Of a stretch of DNA of 64,000 bases, positions 39,956-58,836 are shown one piece after another; position 1 is the first letter of the stretch, and each line of letters starts with the position of its first letter. The notes under the pieces are model-generated. The model did no database searches. It was not told the DNA's origin and saw only the letters and a list, made by a program, of their open reading frames with translations. The translations under genes and the position numbers were made by a program. The DNA comes from Dictyostelium discoideum. Lineage: Eukaryota. Where the stretch lies: NCBI GenBank assembly GCA_000004695.1, contig CM000152.2, forward strand, positions 2,976,001-3,040,000. The letters are read 5' to 3'.

Positions 39956-41596
39956 TTAATACTTTTTCTTTTTATGAACTTTTTTAATAACTTTTCTTTT
40001 ATTTATATCAATTGAACCTTCAGAATCACCAGAATGTCTATCAGAAGAACTTGAATAATTTTTATCTTTTAATTCATTTGTTGCAATTCTATGAGCTTCT
40101 TGAACTCTTTCTAAAAAGATTAAAACTGTTTCTTCTTGACATGGGAAAGAATCCAACTTTTTCTTTAAAACAAATTCAATACGTTGATACATTTCAACAT
40201 CGTATTGAGTGACGATAGTGATGGCACGACCAGAATTACCAGCACGAGCAGTTCTACCAACTCTGTGAACGTACTCTTTTGAATTGGTTGGTACATCATA
40301 ATTGATGACTAAATCAACTGATGGGATATCTAAACCTCTAGCAGCAACATCGGTTGCCACTAGAATTGATTTTGTACCTTGTTTAAATTTATTTAAAGAT
40401 GCTAAACGTTTACCTTGATCCATATCACCATTGATTGGAATTGCACCAAATCCTAAATTTCTTAACATCATTGCAATCTTTGTGGATGATGCGCAAGTCG
40501 ATGTGAAAATAATGGTTAAATTACCCGCCAATTCATTTAAAATGTATGCTAAATAACAATCTTTATATTTAAATGGTACGAAAAGGTATTGTTGAAGTAA
40601 TGTATCTACAGTTTGATATTTTGATGCAACTTGAACTTTCACTGGATTAACCAATGATGCTCTTTGAAGTTTTGCAACTTTTGATGTCATTGTAGCAGAG
40701 AAAAGGTATGTGTTTCTCTCTTTTGGTATCACTTTTAGAATGTTGTTAACTTCCTCTTCGAAATCTGCAGAGAATAAACGATCGGCTTCATCCATAATAA
40801 AGTATTTAATAGAACGTAAATTGAAACCTTTTGTATGCTCCAAATGATGTAAAACTCTACCTGGTGAACCTACGACCACATGTGGTTTCTTTGCCAATGC
40901 CAATGATTGTGACATTGAATCAATACCACCAACTAATACACAAGTTTTCACACCAATCGTTGAACCGATTGCATTGAATTGATCGGCAATTTGATATGCT
41001 AATTCTCTAGTGGGTGCCAATGCTAAACAGAATAAACCTTGTGGTGCTTCCAATAGCTTTTGTAATACTGGAATTACGAATGCTGCTGTTTTACCAGAAC
41101 CAGTTTGTGCCAACCCAATAATATCTCTACCTTTTAATGCCCATGGAATAGATTCCCTTTGAATCTCTTTTGGTTTATTAAATCCTAATTTATTACATGC
41201 ATCAATAATTTGTGGGTGAACTCCCAATGATTCAAATGTAACATTCTCATATTTCTTTTCCTCTTCTTCTGATTTCTTTTGATTTGTATTATTTATAAAT
41301 TCTTCAATCTCTTTTTCTTCTTCTTCTTTTTCTAATAATGAATCTTCATCTAATTCTTCATTTTTAATTTCTTTTTTAATTTCTTTTTTAATTTCTTCTT
41401 TAACTTCTTCTTCTTCTTCTTCTTTAACTTCTTTTTCCTCTTGTTTTTTAATTACTTTTTTTACAATTTGTTTTGGTTTTTCTGTCAATGTCGATTTCTT
41501 TGGTGCTGCTGCTATTGATGTTGTAGTTGTTTTTTTTACAACTGCACTACCATTACTTTTTAATGTTGGTTTTTTTTTTATGTCTGTGATTGCCAT
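39956..41596 (-). CDS. ddx47: ATP-dependent DEAD-box RNA helicase DDX47/Rrp3
   Basis: Has the Q motif, [21 protein letters not shown], and [10 protein letters not shown]. The N-terminus is K/E-rich. It is a single exon. Confidence 0.9.
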
Positions 41597-42895: not shown

Positions 42896-45800
42896 TTAAT
42901 TTTCAGACATTGGTTTTAATTTTGCTGAAAATGTTTTCATTTGTTTAGCAATGACCTTCTTTTTATATATTGTAACAATAGTAGCAAAAGTTATTGCAAT
43001 AGCAGCAACAGAACAACCAACGATAATTCCAGCCAATTGTGCTTTTGATAATCCAGATGATGGTTTTGGTGAGCATATTGAATTTTCATTATCATTTGTT
43101 GTTGATGGATTTGAATTGAGAAGTAATGAGAAATCTGGATCAATTATTACATTTTTGTTATAGATTGGTACATTAATACCAATAAATGATTGAGATGTGT
43201 GCGAATCACTAATTGCACCTAATGATTTATCTAATAATTCATTTGAAATTGTAATTGGAACTGAATCAACCAATGCTCTTTTAATTAATCTACCATATAA
43301 ACTTTTATTTGATATTGATAATTTAATAAAATCTGAACCTTGACTCGTTGTGCTATCAAATTCTTTATTTGAACATGAATCTGAATCTGAATTAATTATA
43401 GCAGTTGCTGATAAAATTAATTGCAATTGGCTCAATCTAGTTGAAAATGGATATTTCTCAATATAAATTGTATATTTAATTGATGATGGTTTCATTTTAA
43501 TTTCTTGACCTGCAAATTCAATTTTTCTTTCATTTTCAAAGTATTCAATACTAACTGAAATTGGTGTTGTTGTTCCATTTTTATTTATAATATTGGATGA
43601 ATATGTTGATAATTTAGAATTATTTGAAATATAATCCCATTTATCAAATGAATACATATGTAAAACTTTATTATTATAATCGATCTCTCTAATTGCTACA
43701 ACACTTACTAAAGCAACAATGCTTGATTCTGAATTGTCTGATGTACCATTTAATATAATTGTTGGAGATGTATTATTGAATTCTGGTTGAGGCACAACAA
43801 TAACTTTAGAATTACAATCTACACCAACCCATGGAGAATTACAAATACAACCTAATACATCATCGCAGGTACCCTGGGTTGGACCACCACAAATTGGTGT
43901 ACCTCTACATTTGGATGTTAAAATTGGTCTAAAGTATTTAATTCTGTATGGTGTGATTGTGTACATGTTTGATCTTGAATTTCCATTTTTAATTGAAATT
44001 GTAAATGGATCATTTGATGGTTTTACATCATCGACTTTAATAATTGAACCAGATTTCTTTGAAGGTGTTAATGAATAACCTTGACTGAATTCAACATTAA
44101 AATCACCATTTATTGGGAATTTACCATATATCAATAATGAACCACCTTCTGTTGATATTAGACTTGTACCTGTAATTAATCCAGGACTCTGAGAATCCAT
44201 TACAGTGAAGCTTGTTTCAATTAAAAATGGATATCCCATGGTTCTTAATGTAGGCGATGAGTAACCAAAGTATTCACCAAATCCAATTAAACCATAAAGA
44301 TTAACCATAATATCTTGTGGTAATCCAAATCCATACGGTATTGTTAATGTACATTTGTATTGGTTGAATGTTGAATTTACTTGTGTCGTAATTACATCAT
44401 TACATTTAATTTTTTGGAAAGTTGCACTTGTTAAATAAACAATTGGATATTCTTTAATACCTGATCCAATTGAAATTTCATATGTAAATGTTACATCTCT
44501 ATTTAATGATCCAACATTAATACTTTTTGGTTCAAAATCAAATGATTTTAATTCTGGTTGAGTGAAAACACCACCTGGACATTCAGTTTCAATTGAGAAA
44601 AAACTTTTATCTTTAATTGGATATAATGGATTGATATTTGGAGTATAATCTATAGCTTTATTCATAAAGAAAGTTGAATTTAAACCATATCTATCATACA
44701 ATACCATTTCTGCAATTGAGTATGTTTGAGACGTACATGTATTATTATTTAATGTTATATTGATTTGATATGTAAGTTCATTTGAATATTCAATTGGTGA
44801 AACAATTGAAACATTATAAAGAATATTATCAATTGAACCAATAACAACAACATAACCATTATTGAAACCTGAATAATCATTAATTGTAACTACCCAACTA
44901 ATATTATAATTTTCATTATCTATTAATGCCACACCTAAACTTGGATTTTTATTCATTGTTGTTACAATTGGTCCCATTAAATCAATACCTAAAATTTTGT
45001 TAAAAATAAAAAATTAATTAATATTGTTTTAATATTGATTAAATAAAATAGGTTTTACATACGATCACATATTACATTCAATTGGTATTCATAAGGTAAT
45101 TCAGTATTTAAAATATAATGTAAACCTGGTGTTCTAATTGCATATTCAAAATCACCTGGAACAATATTTGGAGGCATAAAAAATTTAAATTCATATCTTG
45201 AATTAATCCATTCACCATTAATTGTTATATTATCCCATTGAGGTATTATTTGAAGATATGGATCAAATGACAATGGAGAATCATTTGTTTCAAGATACAT
45301 AATATTATAACCATATGAGTTTGTTAAATTAACATCATTAAATAAGAAACTTATATTTGATATTGATTCAACATTAAATCCTATAAAATATAATTACTAC
45401 GATTAATAAATAAATAAAAAAACAAAAAATAAATATTGTATGTTACATACCAAAATTATTTAAAACAGGATAAGATAGCAATAGTTCGGTGGAAATAGAA
45501 TTTGTATCAGTTAGCAAAATTTCAAAATCAGGTCCACTCATTATATTATATTGATAGAAAAACTCCAATTCACCATTTTTTAAATCACCACTTAATATAT
45601 TGAAATCTGTTGAATAATATTGATAAATACCATTTGATTTATAACCCCCACTATAACTATTTAATATTATACTTGAAATACTAAATTGGGTCGAATATTT
45701 CAAATAAACCCTTCTAACATTGAAAAAATAATCTTGTTCTCTATACTCTAAAATTGTTGGGCCTGATGAATCTTTGTATAATTGTGGTTAGTTAATAAAA

Positions 45801-47239
45801 TAAACAATAAAGGGATATAATAATATGTGATAACATACTTGTATTGGGACCATTAAAATTTATTGTTTCTCCACCAATATCAAATGTATATCCTTGATCA
45901 GATAAATTTAATGTTGTTAAAACTGAAAAATCCATTATAAATTCATTATTATTTCCACTACCATATCCAAATGGAAAACCAGCAACTGATGTGGTATCCC
46001 AAAGAAATCTTTTCCAAGTATATTCAATTTCTTTTCTATTTATTTGGTTCTTTATAAAACAATTAATATTAAATAATCTATTATTGTTCAAAACAATTTC
46101 ATTGGTTGTTATATTTGAAATATTTAATAGAAAATCTAAAGTTTTTTATTTGTTAGTTTTTTTTTTTTTTTTTTTTGTTTTTATATTTCAAAACTTACAA
46201 GTATTATTATATATTTTTTTAATTTTTGATAATTTTGAATAATTTTGATACTGTAATTTAAAGTTTAGACTCCCATAATAAATTGATTTTAGATTTATGA
46301 AATAGTTAAAGGTTCCATCAATATTACTCGAGACTACCTTTGGTTTAAATGGAGATTCCATCACATTGATATATGGATATCTTTCAATTGGTTTAAAAGT
46401 GAACCAGTATTGGGGATAGTCAAAAGAGGAAATCATTTCAAATTCGCTTGGTTCATAATGAAGTATTGTCATATTATCGTAACTAATTGAACCTATGTTT
46501 TATTTATTAGTTTGAAATCCACTACGAATATTGAAAAATATTTTTTTAAATATACATACTTTTTTTTGGGGATGGGAGATCATATTGTTCAGATCCTATA
46601 AATATACTCCAAATTGGTGAAAAATCATCTGGTGCACCCCTAAATGTTAGTTTATATTTATTAAAATCAAAAGAAAGAGATGCACTAAAAACATCAACAT
46701 TAAATGTTGATAACCATGGTGGGTCTGTATTATCTTCCAAACCTGTAATATTAACATATAAACTATATGTTGATTTAAAAAAATTAAATGTATAATTGGA
46801 AATTGGTACAAATTTTAGATTTTTAGGAGTATCTGATATTTTTTATTTTGTTAGTAAATTTTTTATTATTTTTTATTATTTTTTATTAATATTTACCATA
46901 ACATATAATTTTTTGAGGAAATATTTGGGAAGAGCTTGGATTTTTAGAAGTAACATTGACATAAAAAATTATATCTCCAATATTTGCTGAAAAATATACA
47001 GGTGAAGTGATTGTACCACTAAATTTCTCTAACTGGTATTGGAAAATAGTTGTAGTATTATCCAGGGCGACCCAATCAATGTTTTCAATTTCTTCACTGT
47101 CAATGACTATTGAAGTTTCAAAATTACATCCCCCAAATGTTGCATATTTATTTTTAAAATTTGTTTGTAAAACAAAAATTGATAAAGTAAAATTTAAATA
47201 TAAAATAATAATAACAGTACAAATAAAAAATTTATTCAT
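42896..47239 (-). CDS. Large type-I membrane glycoprotein, cluster paralog A (~1,312 aa): signal peptide, >=5 ~100-aa beta-rich repeat modules, EGF-like Cys-rich module, TM anchor
   Basis: complement(join(42896..44988,45063..45380,45451..45771,45839..46135,46199..46492,46560..46832,46897..47239)). All six introns are phase 1, 65-80 nt, with GTAAAT/GTATGT/GTAAGT donors and ACTAAC-like branch sites. Each of exons 2-6 encodes one module with many NxS/T sites. Exon 7 contains CRGTPICGGPTQGTCDDVLGCICNSPWVGVDCNS and the TM LAGIIVGCSVAAIAITFATIVTIY followed by KKK. Confidence 0.7.
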
Positions 47240-48228: not shown

Positions 48229-48918
<690 letters not shown>

Positions 48919-49069: not shown

Positions 49070-50700
49070 TTATTTCATTGCTATTAATTTATTACTAAAA
49101 ACTTTCATTTTTTTTTTAAGATTTCTTTTCTTTTTGGTTGTAACAACAGTTGCAACAGTTATTGCAATAGCGACAACACAACAACCTATGATTATTCCAG
49201 CTAATTGTGCTTTTGATAATCCAGATGATGACGATGGTTTTGGTGAACATATTGAATTATAATTTGTTGTCGATGGATTTGAGTTGACCTGCAAATTCAA
49301 TTGTTCTTTCATTTCAAAGTATTCAATACTATATTAGATGAATATGTTGATAATTTATAATTATTTGAATTATAAATCCATTTATCGAATGAATACATAT
49401 GTAAAACTTTATTATTATAAACGATCTCTCTAATTGCTACTATATTTATTAATGCTACTATATTTGTTTCTGAATTATCTGATGTTGTTGTTTCGTTTAA
49501 AACAATTGTTGGAGAAGTTGTATTAAATTCTGGTTGAGGTACTATAATAACTTTAGAATTACAATCTACACCAACCCATGGTGAATTACAAATACAACCT
49601 AATAAATTATCACATGTACCATGAGTTGCACCACCACAAATTGGAGTTCCTTTACATTTTGATGGTTGAGGCTTGGTAATAACTTTAAAATTACAATCTT
49701 CGCCATCCCATTGCCAATTACAAATACAACCTAATACATGATTACATGTACCATGAGTTGGACCACCACAAACTGGTGTACCTCTACAGTTTGATCTAAA
49801 ATATTTAATTATGAATGGTGTAACTGTGTACATGTATGATTTTGAATTTCCATTTTTAATCGAAATTGTAAATGGATCATTTGATGGTTTCGCGCCATCT
49901 ACTTTAATAATTAAGCCAGATTTCGTTGAAGGTTTTAATGAATATCCTTGGCTGAATTCAACAGTAAAATCTGCATCTGGTGGGAATCTACCATAAATAA
50001 ATAGTGAACCACCTTCTGATGATATTGGACTTGTACCTGTAATTAATCCAGGGCTTTGAGAATCCAATACTGTGAAACTTGTTTCAATTAAAAATGGATA
50101 TCCATTGTTTCTTAATGTTATTGATGAATAACCAAAGTAAGCTCCAAATCCAATTAAACCATAAAGATTGACTAAAATATCTTGTGGTAATCCAAATCCA
50201 TATGGTAATGTTAATTTACATTTGTATTGGTTGAATGTTGAATTTGTTTGTGTTGTAATTACATCATTACACTTCAATGCTTGAAAGAGCTGCGCTTGTT
50301 AAATAAACAATTGGATATTCTTTAATACCTGATCCAATTGAAATTCCATATGTAAATGTTACATCTCTATTTAAAGATCCAACATTAATACTTTTTGGTT
50401 CAAAATCAAATGATTTTAATTCTGGTTGAATAAAGCTTCTTCCACTTGGACATTCAGTTTCAATTGAGAATAAACTTTTATCTTCAATTGGATATAGCGG
50501 ATTGATATTTGGAGTATAGTCTAAACCTTTATTCATAAAGAAAGTTGAATTTAAACCATATCTAACATATAATACCATTTCTGCAATTGAGTATGTTTGA
50601 GATATACATATGCATTATTATTTAATGTTATATTGATTCGATATGTAAATTCATTTGAATATTCAATTGGTGAAATAATTGAAACATTATAAAGAATATT
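49070..50700 (-). pseudogene. Degenerate fragment of the cluster glycoprotein gene (3' half only; frameshifts, internal deletion, duplicated EGF module)
   Basis: ORF pieces 50267..50578, 49309..50277 and 49070..49312 lie in three different frames. Together they are collinear with aa ~95-690 of exon 7 of paralogs A and B. Upstream exons 1-6 are absent. A segment of ~150 aa between the EGF module and the TM is deleted. The EGF module is tandemly duplicated (CRGTPVCGG...DCNFKVITKPQPSKCKGTPICGG...DCNS). Confidence 0.6.
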
Positions 50701-51045: not shown

Positions 51046-54000
51046 TTAATTATTTATTGCTTGCATTTTTTTCCCAAACACCTTCATTTCTTTTTTTAGA
51101 GCTTTTTTTCTTTTTATTGTGACAACAGTGGCAAAAACAATTGCAATAGCACCAACGGAACCAACAATTATCCCTGCTAACTGGGCTGTTGTTAAACCAG
51201 ATTTGGATTTTGTTGATTTTGCAGAACAAATTGAATTTTCATTTGTTGTTGTTGATGGATTTGAATTGAGAATTAATGAGAAATCTGGATCAATTTTAAC
51301 ATTTTTATTATAGATTGGTATATTAATACCAATAAATGATTGGGATGTGTGAGAATCACTAATTGCACCTAATGATTTATCTAATAATTCATTTGAAATT
51401 GTAATTGGAGTTGAATCAACCAACGCTCTCCTTATGAATCTACCATATAAACTTTTACCTGATATTGATAATTTAACATAATCTGAACTTTCACTTGTTG
51501 TATTATCAAATTCTTTATTTGAACATGAATCTGAATTTGAATTAATTATTGCAGTGGCTGATATAATTAATTGTAATTGACTCAATTTTGTTGAAAATGG
51601 ATATTGATCAATATAAATTGTATATTTAATTGATGATGGTTTCATTATAATTTCTTGACCTGCAAATTCAATTTTTCTTTCATTTTCAAAGTATTCAATC
51701 TCTACTGAAATTGGTGTCATTGATCCATTTTTATTTATAATATTAGATGAATATATTGAAACATTTGAATTAATTGAATTATAAATCCATTTATCGAATG
51801 AATACATATGTAAAACTTTATTATTATAATCGATCTCTCTAATTGCAACTACATTTATTAATGCTACTATATTAGTTTCTGAATTATCTGATGTCGTTTC
51901 ATTTAATATAATTGTTGGTGAACTTGTATTAAATACTGGTTGAGGTACAACAATAACTTTAGAATTACAATCTACACCAACCCATGGTGAATTGCAAATA
52001 CAACCTAATACATCATCACATGTACCATGAGTTGCACCACCACAAATTGGTGTTCCTTTACATTTTGATGGTAATGTTGTTTTAATAAATCCTCTTTTAT
52101 ATGGTTTAATTATATATGGATTTGATTTTGAATTACCATTTTTGATCCAAATTGTAAGTGGACCACTTGATGGTTTTACATCATCGACTTTAATAATTGA
52201 ACCAGACTTCTCTAGAGGTAGTAATGAATAACCTTGACTGAACTCAACAGTATAATAAACATCTGGTGGGAATCTACCATAAATAAATAATAAACCACCT
52301 TCTGTTGATATTGAACTTGTACCTGTAATTATTCCTCCACTATTTGAGTTTATGACTGTGAAACTTGTTTCTATTAAAAATGGATATCCCAATTGCTGTA
52401 ATGAATATGATGAATAACCAAAGTAAGCTCCAAATCCTATTAAACCATAAAGATTAACGATTATATCCTTTGGTAATCCAAATCCATATGGTATTGTTAA
52501 TGTACATTTGTATTCGTTGAATGTTGAATTTGTTTTTGTTGTAATTACATCAATACATTTCAATATTTGAAGAGTTGAACTAGTTAAATAAACAATTGGA
52601 TATTCTTTAATACCTGATCCAATTGAAATTCCATATGTAAATGTTACATTTCTATTTAATGATCCAACATCAATATTTTTTGGTTCAAAATCAAATGATT
52701 TTAATTCTGGTTGAATGAAACTACCACTTGGGCATTCAGTTTGAATTGAATGTAAATTCCTATCACTTATTTTAAATAATGGATTGATATTTGGAGTAAA
52801 ATCTACTGCTTTATTTATATAAAAAGTTGAATTTAAACCATATCTATCATATAATACCATTTCTGCAATTGAGTATGTTTGAGATATACATGTATTATTA
52901 TTTAATGTTATATTGATTTGATATGTAAATTCATTTGAAAATTTAATTGGTGAAATAATTGAAACATTATAAAGAATATTATCAATTGAACCAATAACAA
53001 CAACATAACCATTATTGAAACCATTATAATCCTTAACTGTAAATGTCCAACTAATATTATAATTTTCATTATCTATTAGTGCCACACCTAAACTTGGTTC
53101 TTTATTCATTGTTGTTACAATTGGTCCCATTAAATCAATATCTAAAAACATATGTTTTTTAAAATAAAATTAATAAAACTATAATTAAAAAAATTAAATA
53201 AACAATTTAAAGATACATACGATCACTAATTATATTCAATTGGAATTCATCAGGTAATTCAGTATTTAAAATATATTGTAAATTTGGAGTTTTTATAGCA
53301 TATTCAAAAGCTCCTGGAACAATATTTGGAGGCATGTAAAATATAAATTCATAACGAGAATTTACCCATTCACCTTTAATTGTTATATTATCCCATTGAG
53401 GTATAATTTGAAGACATGGATTAAATGGTAATGGAGTATCATATGTTTCAAGGTACATTATATTATAACCATATGAATTTGTTAAATTTACGTCATTATA
53501 AAAGAAACTAATTTTTGATATATTCTCTGCATTAAAATCTATTAATTTATAATATTAAAAATTAGGAAAAAAGACTTTAAAAATTAATATAAAATAAAAT
53601 TAAAATAATAAACATACCATAATTTTGATCATATAGTTGTGGAAATGAAAGGGTATCTAAAAATGATTGATAATAACTATTTTGTTCTAAAATTGTATAT
53701 TCTGAATTTGAATCATAGATATTTAAAACTATAAAATCATTCTTTAGTAATCCATAAGTATAAATAAATTCAATAATACCATTATTAAGACTACCACTGA
53801 TAATGTTAAAATCTGTTGAAAGATAAACATAGGAATTCTGGAAAGCATTATTGATACTAAAATGGAATAATTCAATTTTAGAAATTCCATTTGGTGTTGA
53901 ATAATTAAATCTAAATAAAAGTTTGTTATCATCTTCTGAAAAAGTATCTAAAATATTAAATTTGGTAATTAATGGTGCTGAAAGATCTATAAATTAATTT

Positions 54001-55543
54001 TATAATTAGGTTAATAATAATTTAAATAAATAATATTAGAAATTTGTAAAAATATAATTTGTTACTTTTAAAATTAGGACCAGAGAATGAATATGAATAA
54101 CTTCCAACTGAAAATGAGTATGAACTATTTGATACATCCAACATTGTAAAAATTGAAATATCTAAATTAAAATTTTTATTATTTCCAGAACCAAAACCAA
54201 AAGGAAATGATTCATAATTTGTTTTACCACCTTCCCAATTATATTCAATTTCATTTCTACTTGTTAAATTCTCTCCTTTATAATTTAAGAATGTTAATAA
54301 ATCATCTAAATTAACTATATTTTTTGAACTTTGTAAATCTGTTGGTTCAAATTTAAAATCTTGATCTATATTTTTAATTAAAATGTTAGAAAAATAATAA
54401 AAATAAAAAAACAAAATTATAATTCTAATTCTTACATTTATAACTATTTTTATCTTGATATACATCTGAATAATTTTGAAGTGATAATGTACATAATACT
54501 TCACCAATAGAAATAATAAGTCTTGCATTAATAAAGTAGTTAAGAGATCCATCATCATAACTTGATACTATCTTTGGTAAGAAAAAAGAATCTCTTAAAT
54601 TAATATATGGATATCTTTCATTTGTTTTAATATTAATCCAAAATTGAGGATAATCAAATTTTGAATTCATATTATGATTAATATTATAGTAATCAATTAC
54701 TGCAGAATTTACATAACTAATTGAACCTTTTTTTTTTTTTAATTAATTATTAATTAACATTAATATTGTAAAGATAATCAAAATGTAAATTATTATTAAA
54801 ACTTACTATTAAATGGTGATGATATATTAAATTTTGGTGAACCATCAATGTATTCAAAAGACCATGTTTTTGGAGCAACGGTTTTTGGTGTACCGAAAAA
54901 TGTTAATTTGTATCTTCCATCATATTCATAGTCAATAGAAACTGAAAAAATACCACTCTCTGAAGTAGTAAGTCTGGGAACATATGAGACATCATCAATT
55001 AACCCACTCACATTAACATAACATGAATATGCTGATGTGAAATAATTATATGAATAACCAGATATTTGTTCAATTGTGAAATCAGTTGGAATTTCTATAT
55101 AATATAAATAAATAGATTTTTTTTTTTTTTTAATAAATGTTTAAAAAAAGGAAAATATATATATATATATTTTAATTACCCTGACACATAGGATAAGTTG
55201 TATGATATAAAAAACCACCATTTTTTGAATATGCTTTAACTCCAATTTCACATTGATTTATTGGACAATATACTCTCGCAGAAAATAACTGTGCTGTTTC
55301 ATTGTGAAAAATAACATTTACATCATTATAAGTTGTGAAAGCATTGAAACCACCCCAAGTTACATTATCCAATCCATTTAAATCTGAAACCAAAATTGAA
55401 AAACTGAATTCACATGAACCACCTATTGCATAAAAAGAAGATCCAAGTGAAAATTTAAATTCTTCAAATTTTAAATCTGAAATAACAAATTGAACAATAA
55501 ATCCAAACACCAATAAAAAATAAAAGTAAATATTAATTTTCAT
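51046..55543 (-). CDS. Large type-I membrane glycoprotein, cluster paralog B (~1,341 aa), same architecture as paralog A
   Basis: complement(join(51046..53141,53221..53538,53618..53986,54066..54365,54436..54726,54807..55094,55180..55543)). The intron positions and phases (all phase 1) are identical to paralog A. It has a signal peptide MKINIYFYFLLVFGFIVQFVIS, the EGF-like module CKGTPICGGATHGTCDDVLGCICNSPWVGVDCNS, and the TM LAGIIVGSVGAIAIVFATVVTI. Confidence 0.7.
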
Positions 55544-55993: not shown

Positions 55994-58836
55994 CTATTCA
56001 TTTAAAATTGAAGTTATATAAGAAAGGTCAGATAGTTGCCAATTATTATCCCAAAATCCAAGAGCATTAGCACCCGATACACCTTGATAACCAAAATTTG
56101 GACCTAATATCATGAAATCTGGCATTGGGAAAGATGATTTAGTTGGGAAATTGAAAAGACTATTTTGGAAACCAATAGTATCAGTACCCTCAATAACTGT
56201 AAGCATACAACCTTGTCTAGCTTGAGTATAACGTTCTTTTGGTGTAATTTTCATAATGGCCTCTGGTGAATAACATGATGATAAAAACAATAAACCAACA
56301 GAAGGACCTGAAAACATATTTGAATCATCATTTAAAGAGAATGACATATTATCACTTGAACCATGGAAACCAATTGGTGATGGTAAAACTGATTGAATTG
56401 AGTAAACTGCTTTATTTGTTTGTGGGCCTCCCATAAATATTACATTATAAGTTGTGAATAAGTCATTTGTGAATTGAGTATCCTCTAAAACATTTATTGA
56501 ATATCTCATTTGATACATTAAAACATTTGATAAATAAACTGCAGATTGTTGACGTTGATTGGTTTGTTGTTCACTTCCAATTGTACCATAAACAATTAAA
56601 ATTGGATAATCTAATATTTGTACCATTGGACCAGAATTTAATGGTGATCTTTCACTCCACATCCAATCATTACCATCATTACAAATTGACCAAACTACAC
56701 TTGAACCACTCTTTTTATTATTTTTAACCTTTGTACCATCGGTACAATAATGTGATGGTAGTTGAATATAATTAAATTTTTGACCATCGATAATGACTTG
56801 ATTTGGTTTCTCATTGAATGAATTGAAACCAAATCTTTTTACATTCTCTGTTTGTAGTGACCAAATACCACTTGATAAAGAGTTTGTTTTATCAACACGA
56901 ATTTTTGAAGCTTTGAAATTATTAATGGCTTGTTGAATTGAAACACCACCTTTGCCTTGGAAAGAGCCAGGATTTAAACAATTGATTAAAAATCTGTCCG
57001 GTAATAATGGTATACCAGAGATTGCATATTTGCTAAGGAATGCTTGCATGATTGCATCATCAACCACACCATTGAACCAATGATTTTCTCCTGGGATTTC
57101 ACTAATTAACCCAATACTTGTATTATGTGTTAACTGATCATATAGACGTAGCATACGTCTAAGATGATAGGGTGGCACATTATCATCATCTGAACCCATA
57201 CGAACTATCATTGGTATATTGATTAAATGTGGTGAGTGGAAATCTGCATCATTTTGACTAACTACTGAATCTAGAATAAATCTTATCATTGGATTACTCC
57301 AAGAATAACCAACTCTAAGGAAATTTGGTGAATATAATTTCATATCAATCCAACCTGCTGCAATTGATAATGATACCACTCTATCTGGTGAAATTGCTGT
57401 TGCGAAATGTTCACTACCATGTCCACCCATACTATGACCTAGTACTTGAAGTTGATATGGATCACATTGATATTTGGTTTTCAAATTGTTTGGCACACCA
57501 GGTAATGAATTACATAAATAATCCAATGCCATCAATCCATTCTTTATACCACCCTCTTCCCAATCGAATCCATAATTGGCTCTATTTGTTGGTAATAATA
57601 TCCATGTATAATTTTGAACTTGAAATGCGCCTGTCCACGCCGATGATTTTGCATCAACACCTGCACCATGTAATGCAAATAAAACTGGTGTTGGTGATAT
57701 ACCTCCTTCTATATCATTTGGTGGTATTGCATCAGCATATTGAATTGATAAATCAAAATCTTGAAATGTAAATGTAAATGGTTCACCAAATGATTTACAT
57801 GTAAAATTTAATGTTATTAATTCACCTTTTGATTGTGGGGATTGAGGATAAACCATCATACTAAATGCATAGGTTGTACCTGAAGGACAATTAATAAGAC
57901 CACTACCATTACTAGTTTTAACAATGAAATTGACAGGAATTAATTGACCAGGACCAATGTAATTAATTTCTTGAGGTAATGGTGATTCAATTAATGAAAC
58001 TTGAAACTCATCAGTTAATGGCTCTAATGATATCATGCCACTGATTGGTTGATTCAATATATTCAAAACTGAAATTGAGATAAAAGGTGATGAAAATTCA
58101 TTATCAACTATATCTGGTACAATCGTATTTTCATAGACTATGAAAATTGATTGCTCCTCTTTGGTTGTTATGATTTCACATTGATAACTTGCTGCCTCTG
58201 ATCCAATGATTCTAACTTTTAATTGATGTGTACCACTTGATAATTGAATTGAATTAAATTGTAATCCCAATCCATATGAATCACCTTGCATCACTGTTGA
58301 ATCTATCCAAAACTTTGCAATACCTGAACATGTAACTAAAATGGTTTCACTAGTATTCAATGAAAATGTTGAAATTCCCCAACCACTAAAATATGTGCCA
58401 CTTGATCCTGCCCAATTATTTATTAAATCCCAATTTACATTATTTGAAAAATTTAAATTAACCATACCATCAACATTTGTTGTATAATGATTCCATCCAA
58501 CTCTAAATTTTTATTTATATATAATAAATATAATAAACAAATAAATAAAACAAATAAAAAAAATAAAAAAAATTAATACATTATATATGTTTTTATATTA
58601 ATTTAAAAAAACACATACCTTGCTCCATTAACTAATTCACTAATATATGTTGAATTATCACCTATTGGTATATTATCAATTCCACCATAACAATTTAATA
58701 CATCAACATCTTCTCTTGGTGCACTTGGAAATGGTGCTAATATATCCCATTCTGTTAAATAATAATTTTCACAATTAACTAGGTTTTGGGATATTAAAAT
58801 AATAAATAATGAAAGTAAATATAATAACAATTTCAT
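55994..58836 (-). CDS. Secreted ~908-aa protein with alpha/beta-hydrolase nucleophile-elbow (GHSMGG); putative serine esterase/peptidase
   Basis: complement(join(55994..58502,58619..58836)). Exon 1 is the signal peptide MKLLLYLLSLFIILISQNLVNC...ELVNGA(AG) followed by GTATGT. The acceptor is AATTTAG, and exon 2 begins RVGWNHYTTNVDG. The motifs VLGHSMGGHG and FALHGAGVDA sit in the middle, between large N- and C-terminal beta-rich regions. Confidence 0.6.

Follow-up and report, generated by a model that had tools for sequence, protein, structure and literature searches.

Conserved symmetric phase-1 exons, one per predicted module, in two tandem ComC-like genes of Dictyostelium discoideum

We analysed a window of 64,000 nt from Dictyostelium discoideum chromosome 3 (contig CM000152.2, positions 2,976,001 to 3,040,000; very AT-rich, GC ~22%), which carries on its minus strand a tandem gene family composed of two intact 7-exon genes and a truncated third copy between them. 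The intact genes are DDB_G0280149 (paralog A, 47239→42896, minus strand, 7 exons, 6 introns, 1312 aa) and DDB_G0280157 (paralog C, 55543→51046, minus strand, 7 exons, 6 introns, 1341 aa). The reading that we hold to be rather probable is that these two ComC-like paralogs retain an old, conserved array in which each exon with a phase-1 intron on either side (class 1-1 symmetric) encodes one module, with the number of modules (m1 to m6) fixed at six and introns lost later. The array is probably the relic of an ancient exon duplication.

Exon structure of the two genes and its conservation

The gene models were rebuilt from the raw sequence by reading the minus strand in three frames and locating the GT..AG boundaries. 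The spliced protein of A is verbatim that of KAM9949670.1, which is DDB_G0280149 as annotated in a strain assembly, and the spliced protein of C is verbatim AX4 XP_641276.2 (DDB_G0280157). The 12 introns all have GT..AG ends, a length of 63-85 nt, and a GC content of 7-21%, and each is in phase 1, as the first-pass annotation of this DNA had claimed. The 10 internal exons all have a length that is a multiple of 3 and a phase-1 intron on either side, each encodes one module of ~91-123 aa, and the reading frame would survive the deletion, duplication or skipping of any of them. The interval that had been singled out, 45063-46832, does correspond to exons 2-6 of A; the size range attached to it (288-369 nt) belongs to C, and the internal exons of A measure 273-321 nt.

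The introns of the two paralogs had also been said to lie at homologous positions. This holds for five of the six, whose junctions coincide in the alignment of A with C; the junctions of intron 3 lie 2 residues apart, where the alignment is poor, and both genes split TAT there as T/AT (the slash marks the splice). The split codons at the A junctions (G/AT, A/GT, T/AT, A/AT, G/GA, and C/GT) have no common proto-splice motif, and the six A introns all lie within the 5' 1.85 kb of the coding sequence. At A intron 4, an alternative CAG acceptor occurs 9 nt downstream, likewise in phase 1.

The AX4 model of DDB_G0280149 (XP_641272.1, 1282 aa) uses an intron 1 acceptor located further downstream, still in phase 1, and skips 30 aa (window 46742-46832). 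Because the skipped codons are homologous to exon 2 of paralog C, the 273-nt exon 2 is preferred here, and the AX4 reference model is probably wrong. As judged from annotation identity and from conservation across species, the phase-1 junctions of A and C are real.

The introns of relatives were placed by exact protein-to-genome mapping. In D. purpureum, the orthologue is interrupted by phase-1 introns after residues 80, 176, 265, 368, 502, and 608, which are the m1-m6 boundaries given by hidden Markov models (HMMs), and all six recur in the D. dimigraforme orthologue. Of the six boundaries, four carry a phase-1 intron in the distant D. discoideum paralog DDB_G0282809, in which m4 is fused to m5 and m6 to the core. 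The D. citrinum paralog P0030 has phase-1 introns at m3/m4, m4/m5, and m5/m6.

Upstream of P0030, a 212-aa "gene" (L001 1893-3000) consists of a signal peptide and two modules that resemble m1 and m2, and phase-1 junctions link it to P0030 over a poly(AAT) intron. Both annotations probably belong to one gene. With the two unannotated upstream exons recovered in this way, m1/m2 and m2/m3 are also in phase 1, giving five phase-1 module junctions in total. The description of P0030 as a four-module paralog was rejected, its annotation being 5'-truncated at the poly(AAT) tract. Furthermore, a seventh phase-1 intron, at IDP/DFSVLID (the end of the ComC supersandwich), is common to the D. purpureum gene and P0030 and absent from exon 7 of the window genes, which indicates an intron loss in exon 7. 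The D. purpureum gene P0028 has a single intron, at the position of A intron 6. P0028 and P0029 resembled one-module genes at first sight; the region upstream of P0028 has no detectable similarity.

The first-pass annotation had placed further intronless domains in exon 7, and these were identified as the Pfam domains DUF7035, DUF7034, epidermal growth factor (EGF)-like DUF7949, and ComC_SSD, in this order and all above the curated cut-offs (in A, 98.6, 95.6, 48.3, and 71.9 bits versus cut-offs of 27, 27, 27, and 24; C is similar). They are followed by a Ser/Thr/Asn-rich stalk, a hydrophobic segment, and a short basic tail. In A, the N-terminus is hydrophobic (helix 2-19 in the AlphaFold2 (AF2) model described below), and inspection located the hydrophobic stretch AGIIVGCSVAAIAITFATIVTI followed by KKK. 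Both A and C have the four-domain Pfam architecture that defines ComC-like family membership. On these sequence features, A and C are predicted to be type I membrane glycoproteins forming a lineage-restricted branch of the Dictyostelium ComC-like family.

The Dictyostelium ComC-like EGF-domain membrane proteins have in common with exon 7 the complete domain set, the stalk, the putative transmembrane segment, and the short tail, whereas the six N-terminal modules are confined to a small Dictyostelium subfamily. The relatives of the leucine-rich repeat (LRR) type differ from A and C in having another N-terminus and phase-2 introns. Residues 1-616 of both proteins (exons 1-6) gave no Pfam match at E <=1, including the immunoglobulin (Ig), fn3, and TIG models. 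Word-indexed searches with the N-terminal region, as a single sequence or as a profile, returned one strain fragment only, since its low-complexity composition swamps the index, and exhaustive HMMER searches were needed. Among 1.84 billion representatives (50% clustering), these found eight matches to the six-module N-terminus, all in Dictyostelium, and no occurrence of m1-m5 in another protein context. Thus, the six-module N-terminus is a lineage-restricted invention. Module 6 alone is detectable in distant ComC-like proteins, always directly upstream of DUF7035; its HMM matches P0030, P0032, and P0029, with an hhalign probability of 95% to the start of P0030 exon 4.

The modules and the origin of the array

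Each symmetric exon had been described as encoding one repeat of ~100 aa. One module per exon was found, and the repeat was not. An all-versus-all BLASTP of the modules recovered A-versus-C orthologous pairs only, the best between-module E value being ~0.05. Coherently, hhalign of the per-exon profiles gave a probability of <=1.2% for all 15 module pairs, with alignments of 7 and of 12 sequences, and no link of the modules to DUF7035 or DUF7034. The alignment of the modules to each other, a check that had been set beforehand, thus failed, and the remaining likeness would be of fold class only. A tandem repeat protein made of sequence repeats was rejected on these three tests (BLASTP, and hhalign at two profile depths).

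Two AF2 models of the N-terminus were compared, the first from 7 sequences, with a mean predicted local distance difference test (pLDDT) of 48, and the second from 12 sequences, with a mean of 60.6 (medium confidence; near 75 in modules 1-2 and near 60-70 in modules 4-5). Both are all-beta. In the second model, the junctions 114/115, 205/206, 303/304, 402/403, 509/510, and 615/616 all fall in loops between blocks of 5-10 strands, and four of the six are at pLDDT troughs. Foldseek versus the Protein Data Bank returned proteins with 5-7 Ig-like domains in tandem, and their alignments spanned the query from end to end. With this medium-confidence model as query, the top match was titin I65-I70 (E 2.6e-9, probability 1.00), and further leading matches were S-layer SbsC domains 4-9, CEA, Kit, and VEGFR-1 D1-6. 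The earlier, weaker model gave the same Foldseek picture. The modules contain 0-2 Cys each and no canonical Ig disulfide. These models suggest that the modules likely share a fold class, the Ig-like beta-sandwich.

With a generic intron phase ratio of 5:3:2 (PMC2834692), the probability that the seven ancestral introns are all in phase 1, at module or domain boundaries, is ~2e-4. Independent insertions are hard to credit because all seven are phase 1 at boundaries and no proto-splice motif is shared.

In the history that we favour, the membrane-distal 600 residues would be a string of six ~100-aa beta-sandwich modules (Ig-like/E-set-type), one per exon, each junction falling in an inter-module linker, past the first codon base (phase 1). 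The array would have been assembled from phase-1-flanked single-module exons before the group-4 dictyostelids diverged; the simplest route that we infer is that one ancestral exon-intron unit was serially duplicated in tandem and that its copies then diverged past sequence recognition. The arrangement is older than both the D. discoideum/D. purpureum split and the divergence of the distant paralogs, its position, phase, number, and order having been kept since. Later change would have consisted of intron removal, mostly from the 3' part, and not of module shuffling: exon 7 would have lost at least one phase-1 intron, and other paralogs would have fused m4+m5 or m6+core. The rate of evolution in modules 1-5 is several times that in module 6 and the ComC core, which would suit a surface that recognizes a ligand or partner.

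Several points weigh against this history. No sequence or profile similarity exists between any modules, and their common descent, which we infer, is unproven. The shared fold class is predicted from a medium-confidence model, and the junctions themselves rest on annotation identity and cross-species conservation. The 12 introns count as 6 independent positions, because the paralogs inherited them, and the resulting P ~0.3^6 = 7e-4 for six independent phase-1 introns uses the generic 5:3:2 background, which is not Dictyostelium's own. Towards its 3' end, the D. purpureum gene contains a single phase-2 intron as well. Finally, P0033 (LRR N-terminus, L007 1001-4880) has intron phases 1, 2, 2, 2, so the phase-1 rule is not superfamily-wide. 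Two exons of P0033 in the LRR region, of 276 and 303 nt, are symmetric 2-2 exons; symmetric exons of ~100 codons may be more widespread among these genes and would then call for a separate explanation.

We regard as unlikely that the introns were gained independently, in the linkers of an assembled intronless gene, and share their phase by chance or through a preference of insertion sites. The lack of similarity between modules, with duplication unproven, would fit such gains, as would the differences in intron presence and absence among paralogs. Furthermore, the gene adjoining DDB_G0282809 (1403 aa; DUF7743, DUF7035, and further domains) contains ~390 aa (L004 6984-8156) that are 45% identical to DDB_G0282809 aa 1-311. 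These lie in one uninterrupted frame, which means that the module introns are absent there. Against independent gain stand the phase of the seven ancestral introns (7/7, with the probability given above) and the lack of a common motif at the exon junctions. The positions are also common to D. purpureum and the distant paralogs, so the gains would all have to be ancient, and the absences are simpler as losses, fitting the placement of the six introns in the 5' part of the coding sequence.

Module number, copy number and rates of change

The earlier proposal that module number can change by unequal crossing-over was borne out only in the frame-neutrality of the exons: six modules are present in every strain, species, and paralog in which the number can be determined. 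Module copy-number variation among strains was looked for, and the intact copies of three D. discoideum strains have no change of module number and all seven exons, with exon lengths that are equal between strains or differ by 3 nt, once by 6 nt. Six modules were also counted in the D. purpureum and D. dimigraforme orthologues and, allowing for truncated annotations, in both distant paralogs (one annotation was repaired here, and in the other paralog the first module is recognized by position only). An HMM scan gave the same order, m1 to m6, each once, in all members. The same module type in other genes or contexts, or in variable copy number, which would be a sign of actual shuffling, was not found. 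In the sampled history, then, the frame-neutral potential is present but unused; what varies instead is intron presence, whole-gene copy number, gene integrity, and amino-acid sequence.

Whole-gene changes were observed in single strains. Strain ACTFIW carries an extra full-length copy of DDB_G0280149 (A', L005 17587-21945) beside A. In strain ACTFIR (L006 10001-14359), the A orthologue is annotated as two genes (460 + 835 aa) and exon 5 is disrupted; this copy is likely a strain-specific pseudogene, or possibly an assembly error. In the D. cf. discoideum strain ACTFIY (L009 9228-9704), a solitary 480-nt copy of the 5' end of paralog C, 85% identical, lies at an unrelated locus beside CBM49 genes; it begins 38 nt before the ATG, includes exon 1, and ends 63 nt inside intron 1. 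The DNA copy itself is real and hints at movement of DNA at the scale of an exon. The 970-aa P0016, in which this stray exon is annotated as the last exon, was considered as a shuffled-exon fusion and set aside as probably an annotation artefact (GC donor, 644-nt intron).

These observations bear on active exon shuffling or unequal crossing-over, by which the 1-1 exons would be a working substrate and module number and composition would change among genes and strains. We consider this very improbable. Every internal exon is frame-neutral, the stray exon 1 of C with its intronic breakpoint indicates that single exons do get copied, strains differ in whole-gene copy number, and the EGF-like unit is duplicated in the truncated copy at 49076-50700. 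However, every intact member from three strains, four species, and two distant paralogs keeps six modules in one order, and m1-m5 are absent from other contexts in the database searched above. The P0016 fusion depends on the doubtful donor and long intron just mentioned, and the apparent four-module P0030 is a truncated annotation.

A gene-model artefact, in which the "introns" would be AT-rich coding or frameshifted stretches and the regular phase a product of gene prediction, is close to untenable: wrong annotations do occur in the family (the AX4 intron 1 acceptor, the P0030 truncation, the P0016 fusion, and the patched 3' "introns" of P0022 and P0036), but every intron has in-frame stops just past the donor, low GC, canonical GTAAGT/GTATGT donors, and AG acceptors, the intron lengths of A and C differ by 21, 13, 7, 12, 9, and 5 nt, mostly not multiples of 3, exon lengths differ by multiples of 3 only across strains and paralogs, and reading frames and junction positions are kept out to D. 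purpureum.

We compared rates of change along the conserved array. Between A and C, modules 1-5 are 34-47% identical and module 6 plus exon 7 78-81%, with an abrupt step at intron 5 (45381-45450 in A; 53539-53617 in C). Among close species, m1-m5 identity is 0.23-0.52 in comparisons with A or C and 0.45-0.80 between the D. citrinum and D. dimigraforme orthologues, and in every pair module 6 is at 0.78-0.84 and the start of exon 7 (core) at 0.67-0.81. Fisher tests of exons 1-5 versus 6-7 gave P = 0.003, 4e-8, and 0.001 in three paralog-A comparisons. Because the step is present in every close-species pair, these sequence comparisons suggest that it is mainly a rate difference, and gene conversion as its sole cause was rejected. 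The synonymous divergence (dS) between A and C falls from 0.66-1.18 to 0.28-0.43 across the m5/m6 step, so that some concerted evolution of the 3' half, with a contribution of gene conversion, may also have occurred.

Between A and A', exons 2-4 (45839-46832 in the window) have a ratio of non-synonymous to synonymous divergence (dN/dS) of 4.7-7.5, with binomial P of 0.002 and 0.0005. Exon 4 has 24-25 non-synonymous versus 0-1 synonymous codon changes (dN/dS 4.7-15). The flanking introns of A and A' are 90-100% identical, and introns 2-3 are 99-100% identical within strain ACTFIW. Diversifying selection that followed the duplication is a candidate explanation for exons 2-4 of this pair. For the modules in general, positive selection was only partly supported, being significant for these exons, not significant between A alleles (omega 1.9, P 0.21), and absent between C alleles (omega 0.35, purifying). 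Balancing selection as an explanation of the allelic dS of ~0.1 was rejected, the flanking gene of the same two strains being comparably diverged (11 synonymous and 3 non-synonymous codon changes in 209 codons), which reflects a high baseline divergence.

Comparison systems and the surrounding locus

Symmetric phase-1 exons, one per extracellular beta-sandwich module, are commonly regarded as characteristic of the multicellularity genes of animals. Their conservation in an independently multicellular amoebozoan would mean that this architecture is not confined to animals. Full-text literature searches, which also covered intron phase and exon shuffling in Dictyostelium, found no prior description of this family's exon structure or of these two genes; in the literature searched, a 1-1 module architecture is undescribed in Amoebozoa. 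It is conserved, and mildly surprising for the lineage.

The likeness to metazoan Ig and fibronectin type III (FN3) genes, raised by the first-pass annotation, extends to the symmetric exons and to the predicted Ig-like strings but not to sequence membership. The metazoan class 1-1 module genes (titin, NCAM, and cytokine receptors; Patthy's exon-shuffling rule) have one ~100-aa beta-sandwich module per exon, phase-1 flanks, and a membrane-anchored extracellular string, as do the Dictyostelium genes, whose modules and membrane anchoring are predicted. In contrast to them, the Dictyostelium modules have no Ig, FN3, IPT, or other Pfam membership and no Ig disulfide, occur in no other gene context, are fixed in number, and belong to Amoebozoa.

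Phase 1 accounts for 154 of the 155 introns in the sponge Aggregation Factor genes (Amphimedon AqAFs), whose domain limits follow those of the exons although the domains have little sequence similarity to each other (PMC5400394). The AqAF cluster and A/C are alike as clustered genes for cell-surface or extracellular proteins with a phase-1 bias, low similarity between domains, and fast evolution. They differ in that one exon equals one module in the Dictyostelium genes, with an invariant architecture. Outside the metazoans, brown-alga LRR and tetratricopeptide repeat (TPR) receptor genes also devote one symmetric exon to each repeat; these genes are clustered, undergo birth and death, and have repeat exons under positive selection (PMC3341825). 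Their exons are of 72 or 126 nt, identical in length, and encode homologous repeats that are actively shuffled, whereas those of Dictyostelium are of ~300 nt, not mutually alignable, and unshuffled.

The allorecognition genes tgrB1 and tgrC1 (PMC12745789) resemble A/C as genes for predicted Ig-like single-pass surface proteins with between-strain gene gain, fragmentation, and loss and with fast ectodomains. No sequence relationship links them to A/C, and in A/C a dN/dS >1 is significant for one duplicate pair only. A further proposal is that dictyostelids independently evolved the "metazoan" receptor design, by serial duplication of an Ig-like phase-1 module to a six-bead ectodomain, and that the layout has been kept because it lets the alleles and tandem paralogs of a surface-recognition family recombine, or undergo gene conversion, module by module, with the distal modules under diversifying selection. 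We consider it quite unlikely; if true, the locus would be a second, tgr-independent polymorphic recognition system.

The architecture would be tens to hundreds of millions of years old with its module number unchanged, which sets a structure competent for shuffling apart from shuffling actually used. Several gene models are corrected by this analysis, AX4 DDB_G0280149 and P0030 with its upstream "gene". The locus is also flagged as a fast-evolving, copy-number-variable surface-protein locus, for which a role in cell-cell recognition is a candidate. The features of the family are listed in Table 1.

Table 1. Exons, introns, and truncated copy of the tandem ComC-like family (window positions)
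Feature	Positions	Strand	Remarks
A exon 1, putative signal peptide + module 1	46897..47239	-	343 nt; ATG at 47239; donor G/GTAAAT; ends in phase 1
A intron 1	46833..46896	-	64 nt, phase 1, GT..AG, 7.8% GC
A exon 2, module 2	46560..46832	-	273 nt, 91 codons; 38% identical to full-length C exon 2
A intron 2	46493..46559	-	67 nt, phase 1, GTATGT..AG
A exon 3, module 3	46199..46492	-	294 nt; 47% identical to C exon 3
A intron 3	46136..46198	-	63 nt, phase 1, GTAAGT..AG
A exon 4, module 4	45839..46135	-	297 nt; conserved FPFGYGSGNN motif
A intron 4	45772..45838	-	67 nt, phase 1, GTATGT..AG
A exon 5, module 5	45451..45771	-	321 nt
A intron 5	45381..45450	-	70 nt, phase 1; divides fast-evolving modules 1-5 from the conserved part
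A exon 6, module 6	45063..45380	-	318 nt; sole module also found in distant relatives
A intron 6	44989..45062	-	74 nt, phase 1, GTATGT..AG
A exon 7	42896..44988	-	2093 nt; DUF7035, DUF7034, EGF-like DUF7949, ComC supersandwich, stalk, putative transmembrane segment, short tail
C exon 1, putative signal peptide + module 1	55180..55543	-	364 nt
C intron 1	55095..55179	-	85 nt, phase 1
C exon 2, module 2	54807..55094	-	288 nt
C intron 2	54727..54806	-	80 nt, phase 1
C exon 3, module 3	54436..54726	-	291 nt
C intron 3	54366..54435	-	70 nt, phase 1
C exon 4, module 4	54066..54365	-	300 nt
C intron 4	53987..54065	-	79 nt, phase 1, donor GTAACA
C exon 5, module 5	53618..53986	-	369 nt
C intron 5	53539..53617	-	79 nt, phase 1
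C exon 6, module 6	53221..53538	-	318 nt; 79% identical to A exon 6
C intron 6	53142..53220	-	79 nt, phase 1
C exon 7	51046..53141	-	2096 nt; ComC-type core as in A
Truncated third copy, partly annotated DDB_G0280155 (410 aa)	49076..50700	-	from tblastn map, open reading frames, annotation

In module 4 of A, the near-invariant residues are F357, P358, F359, G360, G364, and N366. The truncated third copy matches exon 7 only; it is frame-shifted, has no supersandwich domain and no module exons, and contains two tandem EGF-like units versus one in the intact genes. The EGF unit is doubled also in the D. cf. discoideum orthologue of this copy (P0018).

Three neighbouring genes are unrelated to A and C. 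A coiled-coil protein with a long poly-Asn tract is encoded at 48229-48918 on the plus strand, and an open reading frame with DEAD-box helicase-like motifs lies at 39956-41596 on the minus strand. Upstream of paralog C, an 823-aa open reading frame (55994-58465, minus strand) served as a baseline for between-strain divergence.

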